Of a stretch of DNA of 23,830 bases, positions 13,800-23,830 are shown one piece after another. Both the position numbers and the translations under genes were made by a program. The DNA lies in contig BTUM01000108.1 of assembly GCA_045863235.1 (NCBI GenBank), positions 1 through 23,830 of the forward strand, read 5' to 3'. Position 1 is the first letter of the stretch. The number at the start of each line of letters is the position of its first letter. The notes beneath the pieces were generated by a model, which did no database searches, was not told where the DNA came from, and saw nothing but the letters and a program-made list of their open reading frames with translations. The stretch is from Candidatus Xenobia bacterium (lineage in GTDB: Bacteria > Vulcanimicrobiota > Xenobia > Xenobiales > QWHO01).

Positions 13800-16313
13800 T
13801 CAGGGCATGATAGTCCCCACTGTAAGCGGGGAGCCGACTTCAGGGAACGGTTGTGCCGGCACCGGATTCAGCAGCCCAGTATCCGGGTCGATTCGAAACG
13901 CCGAGGTGCTGTTCGAACCAGCGTTGGCCACGTAGAGGAAGCTCCCATCCGGGGTCACGGCGGCTTGCAGGGGAAGACTGCCGACCGCGACTGGGGACCC
14001 CAGGGGGGAGAGCGAGCCATCGGCCGCAATCGCCAGAGGAACCAGGACGTCCCCACCCGTGAATGTGAAGTCTGGTCGCAGCACGTACAGGAAACGTCCG
14101 TTGGGGTGTACCGTGGCGAAGCGCGGACCGGATCCGACCGTGAAGGGGGAGCCCGTGACGGGCGTAGGAACGCCCGTAGCCGGGTCAAGGCTCACCGCGA
14201 TCACCTGGCCTCCATTGTTGTTGGTCAGGCCGTAAAAGAACCGGCCGTCGGGTGTGGGGGTCCCGCCATTGCCCATGCCGAGGGCGAACGGCGAGCCCTG
14301 CACCGCGGTGGGGGTGCCGTCTGCCCCCAGTTGGTAGACCGAGAACGCATCCCGGGCCGCGCACAGGTATTCGCCCGAGGAGAGCCCCACCAGGCTGATC
14401 GTCCCCAGGCTGCCCGGTACCGCGAAGGGAGCGCCAGGCGTGAGCGAACCGGTGGCCGGGTCTCGTTGAAAGATCCGCGCGCTCGTGTTGTTCAGGACAG
14501 CCACCAGGCTACCGCTCGGAGAAACCGCCACAGGCCCTGGAGCAGCTCCCCCGGTCGAGTAGGGGGAGCCGGGGGAGGAAGTGAGCGTCCCATCCTCGCC
14601 GACATTGGTGGCCACGAGGATTCCGCCCGACTGGTTGGAGGTGTAGACGGTCGCGGCCCCGCCCAGGTGCGCAGGCACCGTGGCCAGGCCCAGCCCTCCG
14701 CCGACCTGAAGATTGCCGACCTTGTCGCCGAGGGCGCCGTCCGGCCCCATGGAACGACCATAGAGGAATCCTCCGGAGTCCGTTTCCAGCACGAACTGGG
14801 GACAGGGACGGACATGAATGGTCAGATCCTGCGTCAGGTTGACCAGACCCAGAAGTCCGTCCGAACCGTTGAGGGCCAGGTCCAAGAGACCGATCACTGG
14901 GCTCACGACGAACGTCCCGACGCTGATCGCATTGCCATGGATGTCCGAAGTCAGCCTGAATCTCGCTTTGAAGGTCTTTCCGCCGACCTCGGGATTGGGG
15001 GTCCAAGTAAAGACGTGTCCTCCGACCCGGGAGCGCTCGGCAGGTACGAATTTGGCCCGGGGAGGCAAAATCTCGGCCACGAGATTGTAGGGGTTGTGCG
15101 TCGGATAGACCCTCGTATTGACACTGTAGTATCCCCGCAAGGTCAGCGCCACCGTCGGTGAGCTGCGGTCCACCTGAACGCCGTAAACCGGGATCGATAC
15201 CGTCTCTCCACAGTCGATCGTAATCTCATCGACCGGCTTCGTGACCCGGAAGAGCTCGAGTGGAGTGGATACAGTGCCGCGTTGAAAACCGGTCAGGTTG
15301 GGCTTGCCGATCGACTGGTAGGCAGCTTCCATCAATCCGACGCAGCTGAATTCTCGGCCCTGAGTGATGGCTCCGTCCCCGGTTGCGCTGTAGTCCCTCC
15401 CGAGCTGGTCGAGCGCGAACTTGAGCACGGCTTCCCGTTCGCTTGCGCTCAAAGCGCCAGCCGGCCGCCTGGGCCCCATGTAGATGTGCCCGGGGAACAC
15501 GCGGAACAGATCCAGTCGGTCGGTTCGAACGCCGACGGTGGTTCCCTCGACGGAAGTGGACTCGACGAGGGCCCTGCTGTCGCCGCCGGGAATGGCTTTC
15601 CCCCCATACATCGCGACGTGGCCGGGCCGCCAGCGAGACCATCGAGTGTCCTGACCGGGAACAATGGCATCGGCGGTCAACGTGAACAAGAGATCTCCGG
15701 GCAGGAGAAACTTCTCCGGAATGTCCATGACCAGGTAAGAAAGTTCATCCACGGCATAAACACCGTAAATGACCGTGAAATGACTCAGAGCCAGGCTGAC
15801 TGTGCCCGCCTGCTCATCCACCCCGATGACGATGGCATCCCGCCAGTTTGTCCGCTCGGAGCCAAGATCTTCGATGGGATTGAGCTGGCTGGACTCGTAG
15901 AACTGGACGCGCGGGTCCTGGCCGTTGACACGCTGGACGGGGACCGTCAGCGTGACCGGCTGATTGAAGGTCAGACCATTGGGCTCCAGGAGATAGACCA
16001 GTTGTCGGCTATCGGGCCCCTGATTGTCTGGGATCGTTACAGTGATGGTCGTGTCAGCGCCGAGCGCCCCAGGCGGAAAATCCAGAAAGGCCCCATCGGG
16101 CAACGCCATACGTCCACCCGACGCGGCAGGGACCAGGGCGCTGGCGCCCAGACCCCGGTCCCCTGTCGGGGACGTGGTGACCACGAGCGCCGAATTGGCC
16201 GGGGCGGGGATGGGAAGCGGAGTGACAGGTAAACCATCGCCCGTGGCAAGGTCCGAGCCTGAGCAGCCCCAAAGCAAGGAAAGAATAACAACAAGACCAA
16301 TGAGCTTTCGCAT
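13800..16313 (-). CDS. Large lipoprotein: ZU5-like region, permuted NlpC/P60 (YiiX/YebB-like) papain-fold domain, and C-terminal lactonase-type beta-propeller
   Basis: Lipobox LWGC after MRK and a hydrophobic stretch. GGRMALPDGAFLDFPPGAL...LEPNGLTFNQPVTLTVP is ZU5-like. PGDLLF...GHVAMY...LGRDY...FSCVGLMEAAY has His before Cys (permuted NlpC/P60). Repeats of P..G.FLYV / GSPF mark the propeller. GGAGG upstream. Confidence 0.85.
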   Translation of the reverse strand: MRKLIGLVVILSLLWGCSGSDLATGDGLPVTPLPIPAPANSALVVTTSPTGDRGLGASALVPAASGGRMALPDGAFLDFPPGALGADTTITVTIPDNQGPDSRQLVYLLEPNGLTFNQPVTLTVPVQRVNGQDPRVQFYESSQLNPIEDLGSERTNWRDAIVIGVDEQAGTVSLALSHFTVIYGVYAVDELSYLVMDIPEKFLLPGDLLFTLTADAIVPGQDTRWSRWRPGHVAMYGGKAIPGGDSRALVESTSVEGTTVGVRTDRLDLFRVFPGHIYMGPRRPAGALSASEREAVLKFALDQLGRDYSATGDGAITQGREFSCVGLMEAAYQSIGKPNLTGFQRGTVSTPLELFRVTKPVDEITIDCGETVSIPVYGVQVDRSSPTVALTLRGYYSVNTRVYPTHNPYNLVAEILPPRAKFVPAERSRVGGHVFTWTPNPEVGGKTFKARFRLTSDIHGNAISVGTFVVSPVIGLLDLALNGSDGLLGLVNLTQDLTIHVRPCPQFVLETDSGGFLYGRSMGPDGALGDKVGNLQVGGGLGLATVPAHLGGAATVYTSNQSGGILVATNVGEDGTLTSSPGSPYSTGGAAPGPVAVSPSGSLVAVLNNTSARIFQRDPATGSLTPGAPFAVPGSLGTISLVGLSSGEYLCAARDAFSVYQLGADGTPTAVQGSPFALGMGNGGTPTPDGRFFYGLTNNNGGQVIAVSLDPATGVPTPVTGSPFTVGSGPRFATVHPNGRFLYVLRPDFTFTGGDVLVPLAIAADGSLSPLGSPVAVGSLPLQAAVTPDGSFLYVANAGSNSTSAFRIDPDTGLLNPVPAQPFPEVGSPLTVGTIMP

Positions 16314-16505: not shown

Positions 16506-16745
16506 TCATCCCCATCTCCTGAACGATGCCAGATCCTCGTTCTTCAGGGCCTGTAGCTTATCTTTAACCTCGGGAGTGCGCGGAAACATCTCTCTACGCT
16601 GCGGAAAAGGTCGAGAACCTCGTGAATGCCATTGCCGAGGATATCGCCCCGGTGGCATGCTCAGCATGGCCTCGATGCGCTCGATCCTGGTGACGAGGCG
16701 GGGATCGAGGCTCTTCAAAGTTTCCATGATCTCGGCCAGGGACAT
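16506..16745 (-). CDS. Possible small hypothetical protein or gene remnant
   Basis: 79-aa ORF with GAGGT upstream and an amphipathic-looking N-terminus; no family recognised; lies in a decayed part of the island. Confidence 0.3.
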   Translation of the reverse strand: MSLAEIMETLKSLDPRLVTRIERIEAMLSMPPGRYPRQWHSRGSRPFPQRREMFPRTPEVKDKLQALKNEDLASFRRWG

Positions 16746-16859
16746 TCATTCCGATACCTCATCAGCCAGCGCCAAGCGATCCAACTCGCCTCGACGCTGC
16801 TCCCTCCGTCCCAACTCAGTCGACCAGCAGACAGGTCGACCTCTTCTTTCTTCAGTCAG

Positions 16860-17171
16860 TTCCCGGAGCCGGAGACTTACGACCCGGAGGTCGGTCCCTG
16901 GCCCGACCTGGCCCTGGAGATCGAGGTGACCCGGAGCGCCCTGGATCGAATGGCCATCTATCGGGACCTCTCGATCCGCGAGGTCTGGCGCTACTCGCCC
17001 CGGCATGAGATCTGCATCGAGCGCCTCGGGCCGGACGGCTATTCCGCGTCCGAGACAAGCGTGGTCCTTCCCGGGCTGAAGGTATACGAGCTCCCGCGCT
17101 TCGTGCAACTGGGGTTTCAGGACGGGCCGCGGGCCATGTTGAAGGCCTTCAAAGCCTGGCTGTCCCTATGA
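16860..17171 (+). pseudogene. 5'-truncated Uma2 family gene (C-terminal half, different subfamily from 13154-13687)
   Basis: PDLALEIEVTRSALDRMAIYRDLSIREVWRY...GY...SVVLPGL matches the C-terminal half of Uma2 proteins. The upstream in-frame sequence lacks the N-terminal Uma2 motifs and a credible start. Left boundary approximate. Confidence 0.75.
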
Positions 17172-20590: not shown

Positions 20591-21370
20591 ATGGATTTCC
20601 GGGAGTTGCGAGAAGACTGGTTCCCCGGGGCGGTAAGGAGCGAGGCGGTGCGGAGTCTGGTGGCGGTGGGCCAGCGCAAGACTCACGAGGAATATGCCGG
20701 GCCCTCATGCCTGACGGTCTATTTCGACCCTCAAGGCCGGTTGCTGGAAGCGACACTCTCCACGCACAAACGGCCCCTCTCGAGCCTGAGCTTGAGCTAC
20801 GAGGGCCAGAGCTTGCACGTGAGCCTGTCCAATGGAATCAGCCAGTGGTATCGTGATGGCGTCTCCACGGTGGCAACCCCCTATGACGGTGACTCACCGC
20901 CGGGGCAGAGACAAGCAACCTTTGATGAGGTCCTGGAGTTGGGACGCAGCGCCCTCTGCCAGCTGCAGCCACAACGCATCGAGTTCCTGACCGAATCCGA
21001 GGGGATCGAGCCTCCGGCCAACCTGGCCGCAAAGTGGCTCAAACACGGCTGGGCCGACCCCGGACAGGAGGGGCCGGTGGCCACTTTCAGCCCCGAGGGG
21101 CACCTGGTGACCTTCGGCACCCAACGCGGTGGCCGCTACACGGGTTGGTGGCTTGTGCTCGACCTGGAGAGCGAGGCGGGCCAGGTGTTCCACGCCGAGG
21201 GCTATCAGGACCGGCCCTTTGAGCGGGTCCAGGGAAGCTCCCGTTTCACCGATGGAGTGACAACACCCGACTACGTCTCATTCGAGACCTGGCTTTCGGG
21301 CTGGATCGGCCAGGTCTACGCCGAGGCGGGCTGGCCCCGTTCCCGTCCTGCGCATCGCGAGGATCACTGA
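20591..21370 (+). CDS. Hypothetical protein
   Basis: 259-aa ORF with globular composition filling the gap between neighbouring genes; no family recognised. Confidence 0.65.
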   Translation: MDFRELREDWFPGAVRSEAVRSLVAVGQRKTHEEYAGPSCLTVYFDPQGRLLEATLSTHKRPLSSLSLSYEGQSLHVSLSNGISQWYRDGVSTVATPYDGDSPPGQRQATFDEVLELGRSALCQLQPQRIEFLTESEGIEPPANLAAKWLKHGWADPGQEGPVATFSPEGHLVTFGTQRGGRYTGWWLVLDLESEAGQVFHAEGYQDRPFERVQGSSRFTDGVTTPDYVSFETWLSGWIGQVYAEAGWPRSRPAHREDH

Positions 21371-21388
21371 TCTCTTGCGGGGTGAATC

Positions 21389-21491
21389 TAAAGTGCAAGG
21401 CCTTTGGTCTTGCACTTTACAACGCGCTGGAACGCAGTTCCGGCGCGTTCGTCAGATTGTGCTAATGTGCAAAACCAAAGTGCGAGCACAT
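21389..21491 (-). repeat. REPIN/MITE-like palindromic element (more complete copy)
   Basis: Two TAA(A/T)GTGC-N15-GCAC(A/T)TTA units in inverted orientation around a central hairpin (AACGCGCTGGAAC-GCA-GTTCCGGCGCGTT); homologous to 9189-9273. Confidence 0.8.
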
Positions 21492-22408
21492 TAGACCAGG
21501 CCTTCCTCGAGCAGGTCGCACAAAGTGGCGGTGATCGGCTGCTCGGTGCGGTCTTCATACCAGCTGAACGCGGGGGACGGGTTGACCTCGAAGCAGCAGT
21601 ACTCGCCCTGCGGCGTGCGCCGCAGGTCCACGCCGGCCAGCACCATCCCCAGATTCCGGGCCACCTGGCGGCAGGCCTCGGCGATGTCGTGGGGCAGGTC
21701 GTGGGCCACCACCTCGGCCTTCTTGTCATAGCGGTAGTCGCTCTCCTCGGCCTGGATCAGGGAAGCGAAGGTGTGCTCCCCCACCACGTGGACCCGGATG
21801 TCCGTCCCCTCCACGCACTGCTGCAACTGAACGGGGCAGAAACGCAAGCGGTCGAGCCGCTCGAGGTCCTCGGGCTTCATGCGCTGGACGATGGAGCGCA
21901 CGTAGCTGATGGATTTGTAGATCACCTCGCCGCCCTGGGCGTGGTAGAACTCCTCGGCGGCGTCCGGCATGGTGGTCACCAGGGTGGCCGGAATCAGAAA
22001 GCCGAAGGGCTCCACCAGGGAAATCTGGCAGGGCTTGGAGGCGTTGCTGCCCGAGGCCACAGGTCGATTCACCACCCGGCCGGGCAGATGGTTGAGCAGA
22101 ACCGACAGGGCGGCCAGGCACTCGGCGCCCACGAAGCGGCTCTCCTCGTCGGAGTATCCCTGGTAGGTCTCGAACTCGCTGAAACCGAGACGCTGGTAGA
22201 CCGAATGGATCTCTTCCAGCCCCACCGTTCGCCCGTCCGAGAGCTTGAAGGCTCCCCCGGATCGATGATCTCCCAGCGAGAACGAGAACGAGACCGTGCC
22301 CGGGATGTCGTAGTTGGGCACCATCTCGACGGGTCGATCGCGGCGTTTGAGCTCGGAATAGACCCGGTCCACCATGGGCTCGCGCGGGTCACCGAGCACG
22401 AGGATCAC
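21491..22408 (-). CDS. ATP-grasp peptide ligase (RimK / graspetide-synthetase-like), catalytic motifs intact
   Basis: VVNRP...SKPCQ, IPATLVT, VIYKS, PVQLQQ, DIRVHVVG, SDYR, GVDL, FEVNPSP (E-x-N). The GTG start overlaps the upstream stop (GTGA, 22405-22408). Confidence 0.92.
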   Translation of the reverse strand: MILVLGDPREPMVDRVYSELKRRDRPVEMVPNYDIPGTVSFSFSLGDHRSGGAFKLSDGRTVGLEEIHSVYQRLGFSEFETYQGYSDEESRFVGAECLAALSVLLNHLPGRVVNRPVASGSNASKPCQISLVEPFGFLIPATLVTTMPDAAEEFYHAQGGEVIYKSISYVRSIVQRMKPEDLERLDRLRFCPVQLQQCVEGTDIRVHVVGEHTFASLIQAEESDYRYDKKAEVVAHDLPHDIAEACRQVARNLGMVLAGVDLRRTPQGEYCCFEVNPSPAFSWYEDRTEQPITATLCDLLEEGLV

Positions 22409-23292
22409 TCTGGCGATGGTCGTCCCTCCTCGAGAAAGTTCGAGACCGCCTCAGCCACCTGGGCGTCTTGCAGGGTATCGAAACCAGGGAAGGTGCGCAG
22501 GTCGGTGACGAGCCAGCCCCGCTCCTCCTCGCGCAGCACGACTTCGGCCAGAAAGAGGCCCAGCTCGTGGCAGGCGGCCATGGCTCGATGCACCAGCTCG
22601 ACCGGCACGGGGGCCTCGCGGGGCAGCACCACGGCCGAGGAGCCCACCACCACGGCCACCGCGGGCAGGCCGCGAGGGGACTCCTCGAAATGGATAGGAG
22701 CGCCCTTGAGCTCGTGCAGGCGTTCCAGGTCGGCTGCCTCCATGGCGCGGAAAGGCTGTTGGCGCCCCCCCACCGGGCGGTAGATGACCTGCCCCGCCTG
22801 CTCGTCAAAGAAAACCTGAGCCGCTTCGGGCTGGCTGGTGACCAGAACCCGCGGGACGGGGAGTCCGCGGGCCTGGAAGTAGGCCAGCACGCTCAGGCGT
22901 GAGTTGAGGTGCTCGCGCCAGAGCACGTGATTGGCCACCAGGCAACGGCGGCTCAGGCGATGGAAGAGGGCGATCAGGGTAGCCCAGCTCTCGACCTGGA
23001 GGTACTCGCGATCCTCGGGCGAGAGGGTCTCGCCCTGCTCGGGTGCGATGTAGTAGCCGTCGAGACAAACGCTCACCAGGTCGTCCAGGGCCACCGGCTG
23101 CTCCTCGGGAATGATGAACAGGCCGTCTTCGAACCCCGGGCCAAGCTCGAGGTAGAACTCGAGACCACTGGGGAAGGTCTCCAGTGGCAAGAAGACCACC
23201 CGTCGCCGGTCACGCCCCTTGAGGTGATTGTAGAGGGGGCCCAGAGACGGGTGGCTGGTGGAGCCAAAAAAGAGGATCGTGGGCGTGCTCAA
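22405..23292 (-). CDS. Degenerate ATP-grasp paralog (probable pseudo-enzyme)
   Basis: Colinear with the adjacent ligase (GLPVPRVLVTSQPEAAQVF, GQVIYRP, DLERL, VVG, ELGL), but the nucleotide/metal-binding residues are replaced. TTG start. Confidence 0.8.
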   Translation of the reverse strand: MSTPTILFFGSTSHPSLGPLYNHLKGRDRRRVVFLPLETFPSGLEFYLELGPGFEDGLFIIPEEQPVALDDLVSVCLDGYYIAPEQGETLSPEDREYLQVESWATLIALFHRLSRRCLVANHVLWREHLNSRLSVLAYFQARGLPVPRVLVTSQPEAAQVFFDEQAGQVIYRPVGGRQQPFRAMEAADLERLHELKGAPIHFEESPRGLPAVAVVVGSSAVVLPREAPVPVELVHRAMAACHELGLFLAEVVLREEERGWLVTDLRTFPGFDTLQDAQVAEAVSNFLEEGRPSPE

Positions 23293-23333
23293 GAAGAGCC
23301 CGCTTCACCGCGCGCTCTGCCTCGCCCTGCGGG

Positions 23334-23830
23334 TCACGGCTTGAAGAAGAAGCGGTCGGAGGGAACCGAGGAAACCCCGGTCGGAGAGCCCAGCGGGAGG
23401 ATCTCCAGATCCTTCTCGATGCAGCGCTTCTCACCGAACTTCTCGTCCTGCTTCTCGGCCCGGAGCTTCTCGACCGGGACCTTGTCGCCCAGCTTCTCAT
23501 CGTGGCCCTTCTCGACGGACATCTTCTCGACGGGGCCTTTCTCGGCGCCCTGCTTCTCGATGGGACCCTTCTCGATGGACAGCTTCTCGAACTGGCCCTT
23601 CTCGTTGGGGTTCTTCTCAGCCGGGCCCTTCTCGATGCAGCCCTTCTCGTCCGGGCCCTTCTCGATGGACAGCTTCTCGAACTGGCCTTTCTCGTTGGGG
23701 TTCTTCTCGGCCGGGCCCTTCTCGATGCAGCCCTTCTCGTCCGGGCCCTTCTCGATGGACAGCTTCTCGAACTGACCCTTCTCGTTGGGGTTCTTCTCAG
23801 CCGGGCCCTTTTCGATGCAGCCCTTCTCGT
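23334..23830 (-). CDS. xxxEK-repeat protein, partial (5' end beyond right edge); putative substrate/precursor of the ATP-grasp ligase
   Basis: The frame of the 62-aa track ORF stays open to the window edge (164 aa visible): EK-(GCIEK GPAEK NPNEK GQFEK LSIEK GPDEK)x2-GCIEK GPAEK NPNEK GQFEK LSIEK GPIEK QGAEK GPVEK MSVEK GHDEK LGDK VPVEK LRAEK QDEK FGEK RCIEK-DLEILPLGSPTGVSSVPSDRFFFKP*. Its stop is 41 nt upstream of the ATP-grasp pair. Confidence 0.85.
   Translation of the reverse strand, partial: EKGCIEKGPAEKNPNEKGQFEKLSIEKGPDEKGCIEKGPAEKNPNEKGQFEKLSIEKGPDEKGCIEKGPAEKNPNEKGQFEKLSIEKGPIEKQGAEKGPVEKMSVEKGHDEKLGDKVPVEKLRAEKQDEKFGEKRCIEKDLEILPLGSPTGVSSVPSDRFFFKP
23566..23830. repeat. Coding tandem repeat: 90-bp super-unit (copies at 23566, 23656, 23746) made of six 15-bp sub-units
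   Basis: cttctc(g) recurs every 15 nt; the three 90-bp copies differ at only 4 positions. Confidence 0.95.

Follow-up and report, generated by a model that had tools for sequence, protein, structure and literature searches.

Three co-oriented genes at the end of the window (the whole stretch of DNA analysed, 23,830 nucleotides) encode a protein built of Lys/acid repeats and two ATP-grasp proteins, and they raise the question of whether the repeat protein is the substrate of its neighbours and, if so, which bonds are formed in it. We consider it probable that the operon-encoded enzymes close K-x2-3-[E/D] units within one chain into a string of about 60 or more macrolactams.

The minus-strand genes run in the order repeat gene, partner, ligase, an operon conserved in relatives, and the tight spacing given in a preliminary description of this DNA, a 41-nt gap and then a GTGA overlap, is exact on both counts (Table 1). 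The window contig ends inside the repeat gene; the missing 5' part with its N-terminal motif, which the same description had proposed to look for past position 23830, was recovered on contig C10. The operon occurs a second time in this genome, on contig C45, and a related locus (L109) carries both ends of the repeat gene on a single contig. All three genes are under purifying selection as measured by dN/dS. Flanking genes vary from locus to locus, and a family scan of the nine window ORFs found no peptidase family, no 2OG-Fe(II) oxygenase, no beta-lactamase and no transglutaminase-fold neighbour.

Between positions 21300 and 23830 we found no sigma-70 promoter, and two terminator-like sites against 1.6 expected; no common motif was evident by eye across 14 upstream regions. 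An association with phage was rejected, with viral contigs holding one locus only. Contigs of four RNA runs reach parts of each of the three genes with low and flat depth, and this coverage may be DNA because a neighbouring gene is covered too.

Table 1. Coordinates of the operon and of the features discussed in the text.
Feature	Position	Strand	Remark
Repeat gene, 3' part (predicted substrate)	23334..23830	-	ORF 23334-23828, open at contig end
Full-length pseudo-ATP-grasp partner, 295 aa	22405..23292	-	
Predicted graspetide-type ATP-grasp ligase, 305 aa, GTG start	21491..22408	-	
D224-Y225-R226 loop of the ligase, counterpart of PsnB DFR233-235	21731..21739	-	alignment
Array of 29 head-to-tail K-x2-3-[E/D] units (predicted rings), last unit KDLE	23403..23825	-	
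C-terminal P-S-x-R-F-F motif of the repeat protein	23337..23363	-	conservation
Repeat gene, 5' part with FIxxE[FL]RP motif	G000:C10:1-704	-	

The ligase and its partner

Sequence comparison supports assigning the ligase to the graspetide-synthetase kind, as first described, rather than to RimK. Its best families are TIGR04187, 04185 and 04184, and it missed every curated graspetide cut-off; the TIGR04187 match itself, under the family cut-off, reached 177 bits (E 5e-52), as against 47 bits for the RimK-type model TIGR00768 (cut-off 143) and 25 bits for the LysX model (cut-off 276). PsnB is the closest solved structure by sequence (E 3e-25), and the six best solved relatives are all graspetide synthetases, followed by RimK at E 1e-5. 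In the alignment, R72, R213 and the DFR loop of PsnB correspond to R73, R205 and DYR of the ligase, the residues with which PsnB binds the ring-forming Glu are retained, and the PsnB pocket for the leader Phe aligns to Y164, R184, L185, L188, V193 and L195. The D-Y-R noticed earlier at the D[FW]R position, with Tyr in place of Phe/Trp, is invariant in 87/87 close homologues, as are R73, K125, K165, R205, D261, E274 and N276, and the ligase has a dN/dS of 0.04-0.08. A Pfam RimK match (E 1.5e-5) and the label alpha-L-glutamate ligase that some homologues bear in databases would suit the addition of a free amino acid or amine, in the manner of RimK or LysX, to Glu side chains or to the C-terminus of the repeat protein; we regard such a reaction as highly improbable given the family scores and solved relatives above, and it would leave the 1:1 pairing of Lys with acids unexplained.

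The partner is full length and 26% identical to the ligase, and its model (pLDDT 88) finds its best fold matches in MdnC, AMdnB and PsnB. Equivalents of the DYR loop, R73, D261, E274 and N276 are missing in 30/30 partners, in keeping with the degenerate ATP-grasp originally noted. That it might be a pseudogene was rejected on its dN/dS of 0.07 (range 0.07-0.08), and we take it to be a full-length, to all appearances catalytically dead ATP-grasp under purifying selection. A complex prediction for ligase, partner and 40-residue leader, run without folded controls, gave a score of 0.08 (mark 0.32).

The repeat protein and the register of its array

The 164 residues of the repeat protein that lie in the window hold 28 EK dipeptides, with 30 Lys, 29 Glu, 8 Ser, 4 Cys and a single Thr, which falls in the C-terminal tail outside the repeats; the count of 28 EK units and the observation that the repeats have no Thr and few Ser were both correct. 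The array is well above chance, as only 21 of 39,307 stop-to-stop frames of the genome (at least 100 aa) reach 9 Lys and 9 Asp/Glu within 40 residues, and three of these are repeat genes of this system. Unit counts are 29 in the window, 39 on C10 and 82 in the C45 paralogue, and the chain made up of the window and C10 parts would thus comprise about 60 or more units. At the N-terminus, F, I and R of the motif LFIxxE[FL]RP are invariant in 13/13 repeat proteins, and a search of the genome for this motif found only three frames, two of them repeat genes. At the other end, R and F of the P-S-x-R-F-F motif never vary among 10 full-length repeat proteins, in which P, S and the second F are at least 90% conserved; this motif is possibly a second docking or sorting signal.

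The protein is Gly/Pro-rich with very many potentially reactive sites, and the model, built on a shallow alignment of 10, predicts it to be disordered (pLDDT 47.5, pTM 0.15) and gives no support to a folded beta-solenoid. Graspetide precursors are disordered as a rule. Matches of the repeat to Pfam Extensin_1 and to histone H1-like families were set aside as compositional and below cut-offs, and ESM Atlas matches for the repeat part were hypothetical clusters only (0.80-0.81), with low recognition.

The repeat had been described as an EK pair every five residues (xxxEK). The repeat array stands, but its register was off by one: on sequence grounds K-x2-3-[E/D], repeated head to tail, describes the unit better, because the arrays of relatives open with an unpaired Lys (15/15) and close with an unpaired Glu/Asp (14/14 true ends). 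Lactams at these spacings are made by MyxF (KxxEKxxE) and CorB (KxxxD). Lys stands 3-4 residues ahead of the first acid in all 15 intact starts, and an acid 3-4 residues past the last Lys in all 16 ends, 14 of them true ends; the corresponding figures for control pairs, which came from other frames of the genome, are 20/103 at the start and 28/103 at the end. The boundary units vary in sequence, with 12 distinct first and 10 distinct last units. These boundary cases are kin and not independent, and duplication of repeat units could keep the ends without chemical selection. The sister locus L058 departs from this range of 3-4, with its first Lys 5 residues ahead of the first acid.

Spacings within the arrays were compared with shuffled sequence. 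The Lys-to-acid spacing +4 exceeds the shuffled mean in 13/15 close-clade tracts and 51/63 wider-family tracts and is the most consistent spacing common to the two sets, in both of which -5 and -1 are raised too. Because the strongest spacing is acid-then-Lys (-1) in the close clade (15/15) and Lys-then-acid (+1) in the wider family (61/63), spacing alone leaves the ring undefined. The basal members L014 and L016 have a KE-type tract in which back-to-back units take 8/55 and 7/43 Lys, respectively.

Lactams between adjacent Glu and Lys (i, i+1), or in another short register such as acid(i)-Lys(i+6), would agree with the enrichment of the -1, -5 and -6 spacings and with the median of 84% of array Lys that directly follow an acid. 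We nevertheless give them very little credence: the first Lys has no preceding acid and the last acid no following Lys, so that a conserved residue would be left unused at each array end, and adjacency in the wider family is mostly reversed (KE), with +4 kept. Intermolecular Lys-Glu cross-links, or a nested long-range lactam ladder, could build a gel, coat or fibre from a disordered, Gly/Pro-rich chain with so many reactive sites; in the wider family the tails are less regular, which would suit non-specific joining, and ThfB can be engineered to yield cross-linked protein dimers (PMC13003496). Links between chains need no arrays that begin with Lys and end with an acid at +3/+4, however, and the characterised Lys-lactam ligases work on short local motifs, and we judge cross-linking or a ladder to be unlikely. 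The preliminary description named the likely bond, a Glu-Lys isopeptide, but its ladder or intermolecular polymer finds no support as the main product, since the K...E register at the array ends fits intramolecular rings set head to tail.

Linkage in relatives and the proposed product

Homologues of the ligase consistently adjoin repeat genes, as had been anticipated. Of the close-clade clusters for which 3 kb or more of upstream sequence is available, 11/11 have a Lys/acid tract, and the ligase is present in 14/14 of the genomes, among 401 of the phylum, that match the repeat profile; these positive matches are partly circular because the profile was built from neighbours of ligases. In genome G052 the ligase is frameshifted, the partner is a remnant and the repeat gene was not found. 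Among 76 wider-family clusters with sufficient flank, 14 have no tract at the threshold used.

The repeat protein might instead be an unmodified polyampholyte or scaffold, with the ligase acting on a product encoded elsewhere. In a related lineage (L018) the FI..RP motif heads a PqqD adaptor, which is no substrate, and Makarova et al. proposed that substrates of branch 8 come from outside the locus (PMC8939145). Yet the PqqD loci adjoin small Lys/acid-rich peptides, the register is conserved and, as noted, two of only three motif-bearing frames in this genome are repeat genes, and we find a bystander role for the repeat protein very unlikely. Within the wider family, the docking motif naturally switches position between leader and follower, a switch that has been achieved by engineering for another graspetide ligase (PMC13003496).

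From the observed anatomy, linkage, register, residues and selection we infer a scheme of docking, bond formation, ring size, partner role and function in which the repeat protein is the substrate of the ligase. Its N-terminal LFIxxE[FL]RP motif would dock in the leader pocket, and the ligase with ATP would phosphorylate a Glu/Asp side chain, a step established for PsnB, whose residues are retained here. The Lys three or four residues upstream would then attack to close a K(i)-E/D(i+3 or i+4) macrolactam, and with one unit following directly on the next, a string of rings would result. Most probably the dead partner associates with the ligase and, without catalysing anything itself, serves as a subunit that holds on to the long substrate; more tentatively, it may grip the chain by the C-terminal RFF motif. 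Each ring would take away one positive and one negative charge, together with one trypsin and one GluC site, and the outcome is therefore likely to be a stiffened, protease-resistant chain that is left uncut by a dedicated protease, none being seen in the operon. As to function, our guess is that the chain acts on proteases as a multivalent decoy or inhibitor, or else forms a structural fibre.

A broader reading, possible but in our view doubtful, is that the ligase and pseudo-ligase pair makes an uncut polymer of 30-100 lactams as a material, and that the same chemistry operates family-wide with the motif relocating. The material would be a rigid, protease-proof fibre or tether, which is protein-scale modification rather than small-molecule biosynthesis. 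Family-wide, the same rings would form on Lys/Glu tails of proteases and DUF6519 proteins in many phyla, and a single docking motif would have moved among the N-terminus, the C-terminus and PqqD adaptors.

If the favoured ring string is real, contiguous lactams, dozens of them in one natural chain, would amount to a new architecture, and the ligase could serve directly as a tool for multiple i, i+3 / i+4 stapling. Because the arrays are regular, they permit a prediction at residue level for a ligase family that is widespread and that also offers a conserved pseudo-ATP-grasp and a natural docking-motif switch.

Known relatives and comparable systems

The preliminary description implied more novelty than the literature leaves: the wider family, according to the parts of the surveys covered, is already known as Makarova branch 8 and Carter groups 32 and 39, and lactams in tandem KxxE and in repeated KxxxD motifs have been published. 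Iyer et al. 2009 may also describe the wider family, because the Makarova table links branch-8 Sphingopyxis enzymes to sequences of that study by similarity (PMC8939145). As to the substrate, the passages of Makarova et al. on branch 8 predict no precursor (PMC8939145) and the Carter text on group 32 names only proteases (PMC13097080), while motif-bearing ORFs are listed in 12 of the 42 group-32 rows examined of the Carter table (PMC13097080). The Eremiobacterota repeat substrate was not found in the examined part of that table, where a close-clade enzyme (MCL4513324.1) stands without a group. Makarova Table S2 gave no match for the one strain looked up, 'ATP-grasp' is absent from the main text of Paoli 2022, and 'Eremiobacter' and 'KxxE' are both absent from PMC11626197. 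In the portions of the literature covered we found no characterised product for group 32 / branch 8 or for group 39, and the published graspetides compared carry a handful of rings each.

We built a 55-row tree that includes a hand-picked 50 of 139 family rows, leaving out the mis-cut row L079 (FastTree run). The wider family groups at 100/100 against microviridin-type outgroups, to which the genome's own microviridin-type ligases belong, and a clade of their own (98/98) unites the Eremiobacterota ligases. A separate clade (100/99) comprises the group-32-like rows together with L040 and the cluster that includes L043; L040 is assigned to branch 8 by strain name only, whereas organism and coordinates tie L043 to group 32. 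The group-39-like rows, with members L019 and L024, are not one clade, and the tree leaves the family base unsettled. As judged from this tree, the ligase clade is kin to Carter group 32 / Makarova branch 8 but falls outside it, and the tree does not separate it from group 39.

Group 32 / branch 8 shares with our system the wider enzyme family, an inactive ATP-grasp directly upstream and a Lys/acid tract with the FI..RP motif. There the motif is C-terminal, the partner measures about 240-270 aa, and the tract, which lacks regularity, is in many cases joined to S8 or M6 proteases, DUF6519 or Ig-like domains, whereas here the partner is full length, no peptidase is among the nine window ORFs scanned and the clade is separate. 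Group 39 has two ATP-grasps, a full-length partner and an N-terminal FI..RP on Lys/Asp/Glu-rich precursors, as here, but its tracts have a period of 3, or else it has short peptides alongside PqqD adaptors; it is described by a transglutaminase-fold neighbour, and the group 39 rows examined show no pentapeptide array and no C-terminal RFF motif.

Plesiocin (PsnB, group 2) resembles the system in catalytic arginines, DFR loop, multi-core precursor and LFI leader core, LFIEDL against LFIxxEFRP here (bioRxiv 10.1101/2021.03.09.434688), but carries Thr-Glu esters in TTxxxxEE cores, with four repeats and one enzyme. Corallotide (group 15) likewise has a large repeat precursor, Lys(i)-acid(i+4) rings, a TIGR04187-type ligase and partner dependence, CorB closing Lys9-Asp13 in five KxxxD repeats (PMC13097080). 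Its five motifs are spaced, hydroxylation by a 2OG oxygenase comes next, and a beta-lactamase-like protein is present too (PMC13097080), whereas here Glu prevails, the units are contiguous and neither enzyme is among the nine window ORFs.

A further parallel in chemistry would be the myxomiditides, class 3 microviridins in which MyxF closes Lys1-Glu4 and Lys5-Glu8 in KxxEKxxE, up to four tandem units (PMC12848669): their back-to-back K-x-x-E units have an EK junction and Lys-Glu lactams i, i+3, and cooperating ATP-grasp paralogues include one that is inactive alone (PMC12848669). The leader of the repeat protein differs from the microviridin N-terminal PFF leader, and the microviridin core TxKxPSDx[DE][DE] matches eight other frames of the genome and no repeat gene. 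MyxF acts on two natural units (four at most when engineered) with a TxKxPSD cage and a PFF leader, in contrast to the present system, with 27-95 units of mostly five residues, no cage, a different leader motif and a partner without catalytic residues.

Layout and conservation of the operon

The three co-oriented ORFs named in the preliminary description, which encode a Glu-Lys repeat protein, a partner (a pseudo-ATP-grasp) and a ligase (a graspetide-type ATP-grasp), were recovered as claimed; the gap of 41 nt and the overlap GTGA are both exact, and 28 EK dipeptides occur among the 164 residues in the window. The window is contig C108 in full, and the sequence sought beyond its end, the 5' part of the repeat gene, was found at the end of contig C10. 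A related metagenome locus (L109; 91-93% DNA identity) carries identical N- and C-terminal repeat-protein sequence on a single contig. On contig C45 the source genome carries another operon laid out alike, with a repeat protein of 466 aa and a partner and ligase 44% and 54% identical, respectively, to those of the window. Among named relatives, a Ca. Eremiobacterota genome (L001) is the nearest, its ligase being 97% identical, and the genes flanking the operon vary among loci.

Features of the window, of related loci (L) and of the source genome (G000)
Feature	Location	Strand	Description
Repeat gene	window 23334-23828	minus	ORF, 5' end cut by contig end
Partner	window 22405-23292	minus	ORF, 295 aa
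Ligase	window 21491-22408	minus	ORF, 305 aa
Intergenic element	window 21387-21494		108 bp, three long hairpins, immediately downstream of ligase
Propeller protein	window 13800-16313	minus	837 aa, lactonase-type beta-propeller match
Uma2-like protein	window 16626-17171	plus	
Repeat-protein variant	L013:3861-5135		about 190 extra residues between array and C-terminal motif
Repeat-protein variants	L014:4054-5025, L016:4100-4981		switch from EK to KE units, Met-rich terminal segment
Divergent ORF	L012:1-1149	minus	short GREK/GEEK-type array within a secreted-looking protein, without docking motif
PqqD protein	L018:6860-7414		starts with FI..RP motif
DUF6519 tail loci	L025, L032, L035, L054, L060, L065, L072, L117, L177, L181, L189		proteins of 436-1111 aa ending in a Lys/acid tract (some short) and FI..RP motif, adjoining a family ligase
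Microviridin-like multi-core ORF	G000:C33:24442-24804	minus	twin-arginine-like start, PFF motif before cores, second PF[FW] at C-terminal end
Microviridin-like multi-core ORF	G000:C93:28869-29276	minus	as for C33
Protein-size microviridin-type precursors	G000:C57:1-1014, C53:54584-55042, C84:28205-29380, C114:8866-9885, C156:2-1000		up to 15 cores per fragment

Clustering at 90% identity of the ligase left 142 clusters from 189 loci with related ligases. The expectation that homologues adjoin repeat ORFs held: a Lys/acid tract was present in all 11 close-clade clusters with at least 3 kb of upstream sequence and in 16 of 18 overall, the two without a tract having about 1 kb or less upstream. 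In the wider family, a tract is present in 62 of the 76 clusters with enough flanking sequence, and in 51 of these it comes with the FI..RP motif (FIxxE[FL]RP, N-terminal in the repeat proteins of the close clade); the genome background for Lys/acid-dense frames is 21/39,307. At L012 the tract lies on the opposite strand and lacks this motif, and the ORF is possibly another kind of substrate. In the reverse search, of 401 genomes in the phylum, 14 matched a repeat-protein profile, all 14 with the ligase; the profile was built from ligase neighbours, and its informative part is the absence of matches in ligase-free genomes. It missed two genomes with a KE-type tract. One operon is decayed (L221, G052:C68), with a frameshifted ligase and only a remnant of the partner, and no repeat gene was found. 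The three-gene system is real, conserved and under selection.

The 108-bp intergenic element has 83 matches in the source genome (35 of at least 100 bp, several identical) and is REP- or MITE-like. No connection to the operon was seen for the propeller or Uma2-like proteins.

Register of the repeat

Two readings of the repeat, xxxEK and KxxxE, are possible, and the array ends decide between them. The first acid of the array is preceded by Lys at 3 or 4 residues in 15/15 intact starts, and an acid follows the last Lys at the same distance in 16/16 ends, or 14/14 true ends once L014 and L016, whose ends lie inside a KE-type tract, are left out; these cases are kin and comprise 12 distinct start units and 10 distinct end units. 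Control pairs in other frames gave 20/103 for starts and 28/103 for ends. At a sister locus (L058) the end fits this register, whereas the start does not. The Glu-Lys repeats of the preliminary description stand, but in place of its xxxEK register they are better read as K-x2-3-[E/D] units, each a predicted lactam ring.

The window holds 29 contiguous units, the C10 part 39, L109 48 (for 52 Lys) and the C45 paralogue 82, within a range of 27-95 among 11 regular members. The final residue is Glu in 297 and Asp in 8 of the five-residue units, and Glu in 125 and Asp in 83 of the four-residue units. A +4 Lys-to-acid spacing is raised in 51 of 63 wider-family tracts, in a test that cannot alone fix the ring, since the spacing that stands out most is -1 for the close clade and +1 for the wider family. 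Adjacency in the wider family is mostly KE, in contrast to EK in the close clade.

Ligase, partner and predicted product

The ligase best matches family TIGR04187 (177 bits; cut-off 350), followed by MvdC and MvdD, and the RimK model scores 47 bits. By sequence search its closest solved structure is PsnB, the plesiocin ligase (E 3e-25), and its six best solved relatives are all graspetide synthetases. The PsnB study (bioRxiv 10.1101/2021.03.09.434688) reports that Arg213 binds the ring-forming Glu, that Arg72 is conserved, that the DFR loop is essential and that a hydrophobic pocket takes the Phe of the LFIEDL leader. In a sequence alignment with a 20-residue offset (construct tag), these correspond to R205, R73, D224-Y-R226 (DYR) and Y164/R184/L185/L188/V193/L195. 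R73, R184, R205 and DYR are invariant in 87/87 close homologues, and ligase dN/dS is 0.04-0.08 in two pairwise comparisons.

The partner is modelled as a whole ATP-grasp fold (pLDDT 88), with MdnC, AMdnB and PsnB as best matches. Its DYR loop is deleted in 30/30 sequences, none of which keeps the equivalent of R73, D261, E274 or N276; that of R205 is kept in 8/30, and the hydrophobic leader-pocket region, judged by eye, is retained. The partner shares the purifying selection seen for the ligase (dN/dS 0.07-0.08, two pairwise comparisons) and is therefore a pseudoenzyme and not a dying gene.

Two characterised ligases form rings whose spacings exactly equal the Lys-to-acid spacings of the array. 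MyxF closes Lys1-Glu4 and Lys5-Glu8 in KxxEKxxE, with up to four tandem units (PMC12848669). CorB, which is fully active only together with a partner protein, acts on a 22-kDa precursor with KxxxD repeats and closes Lys9-Asp13 (PMC13097080). We think it likely that the best explanation is a graspetide-type operon in which the repeat protein is the predicted substrate, closed into a macrolactam string. The ligase would dock on the N-terminal motif, whose F, I and R are invariant in 13/13 repeat proteins, and would close the units one by one into a string of rings; the partner is probably a non-catalytic subunit. The P-S-x-R-F-F motif conserved at the repeat-protein C-terminus may be the partner's handle or an export signal. 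With every ring, two charges and two protease sites would be lost from a chain predicted to be disordered when unmodified. No peptidase or transporter family was found among nine window ORFs scanned, and no signal peptide was seen by eye. The favoured product would be an uncut, protease-resistant chain serving as decoy, inhibitor or fibre. Graspetides are often protease inhibitors. Myxomiditide A has been shown to be one (PMC12848669).

Relationship to published graspetide groups

The source genome encodes further graspetide-like proteins. The C33 and C93 ORFs are possibly Tat-exported precursors with a follower motif, and the C57 precursor has an extra KIRADDD unit similar to the corallotide KxxxD motif. 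At L018, the PqqD protein adjoins short peptides whose leaders are lasso-like and whose cores are rich in Lys and acids; the FI..RP motif may there be a docking tag that is portable and carried by an adaptor.

We built a tree of 55 rows, comprising 50 hand-picked from 139 family rows and five microviridin-type ligases of the source genome. The family falls on one side at 100/100, with an Eremiobacterota clade at 98/98 and a C-terminal-motif clade at 100/99; the branching order at the base is not fixed, and a 144-row tree gives the same picture. The C-terminal-motif clade is branch 8 of Makarova (strain-name match, Sphingopyxis H073) and, in Carter's survey, group 32 (coordinate match, Roseovarius litorisediminis). 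For branch 8, the survey (PMC8939145) offers no precursor prediction and mentions peptidases along with an ATP-grasp that is truncated and inactive; the tract in this clade is often the tail of a protease (S8 or M6), a DUF6519 protein or an Ig-like protein. Carter's group 39 includes the lineages with an N-terminal motif or PqqD adaptor (PMC13097080). A graspetide leader can be functional at either end of the core (PMC13003496), which fits the natural switch between N- and C-terminal motifs in the family.

In the searched part of Carter's table (PMC13097080), 'IEKGP' and 'SDRFF' do not occur, and the five Vulcanimicrobiota rows and one Xenobia row give other precursors; one of these, MCL4513324.1, is without group, and the 'precursor' listed for it is the opening segment of a P0085-like ligase. 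A literature search covering listings and opening lines of abstracts, largely of papers outside subscription, found no account of this Eremiobacterota repeat substrate. By the features tested, the operon is outside group 32, group 15 and the microviridins; it would work like a graspetide pathway, and every class feature examined was found.
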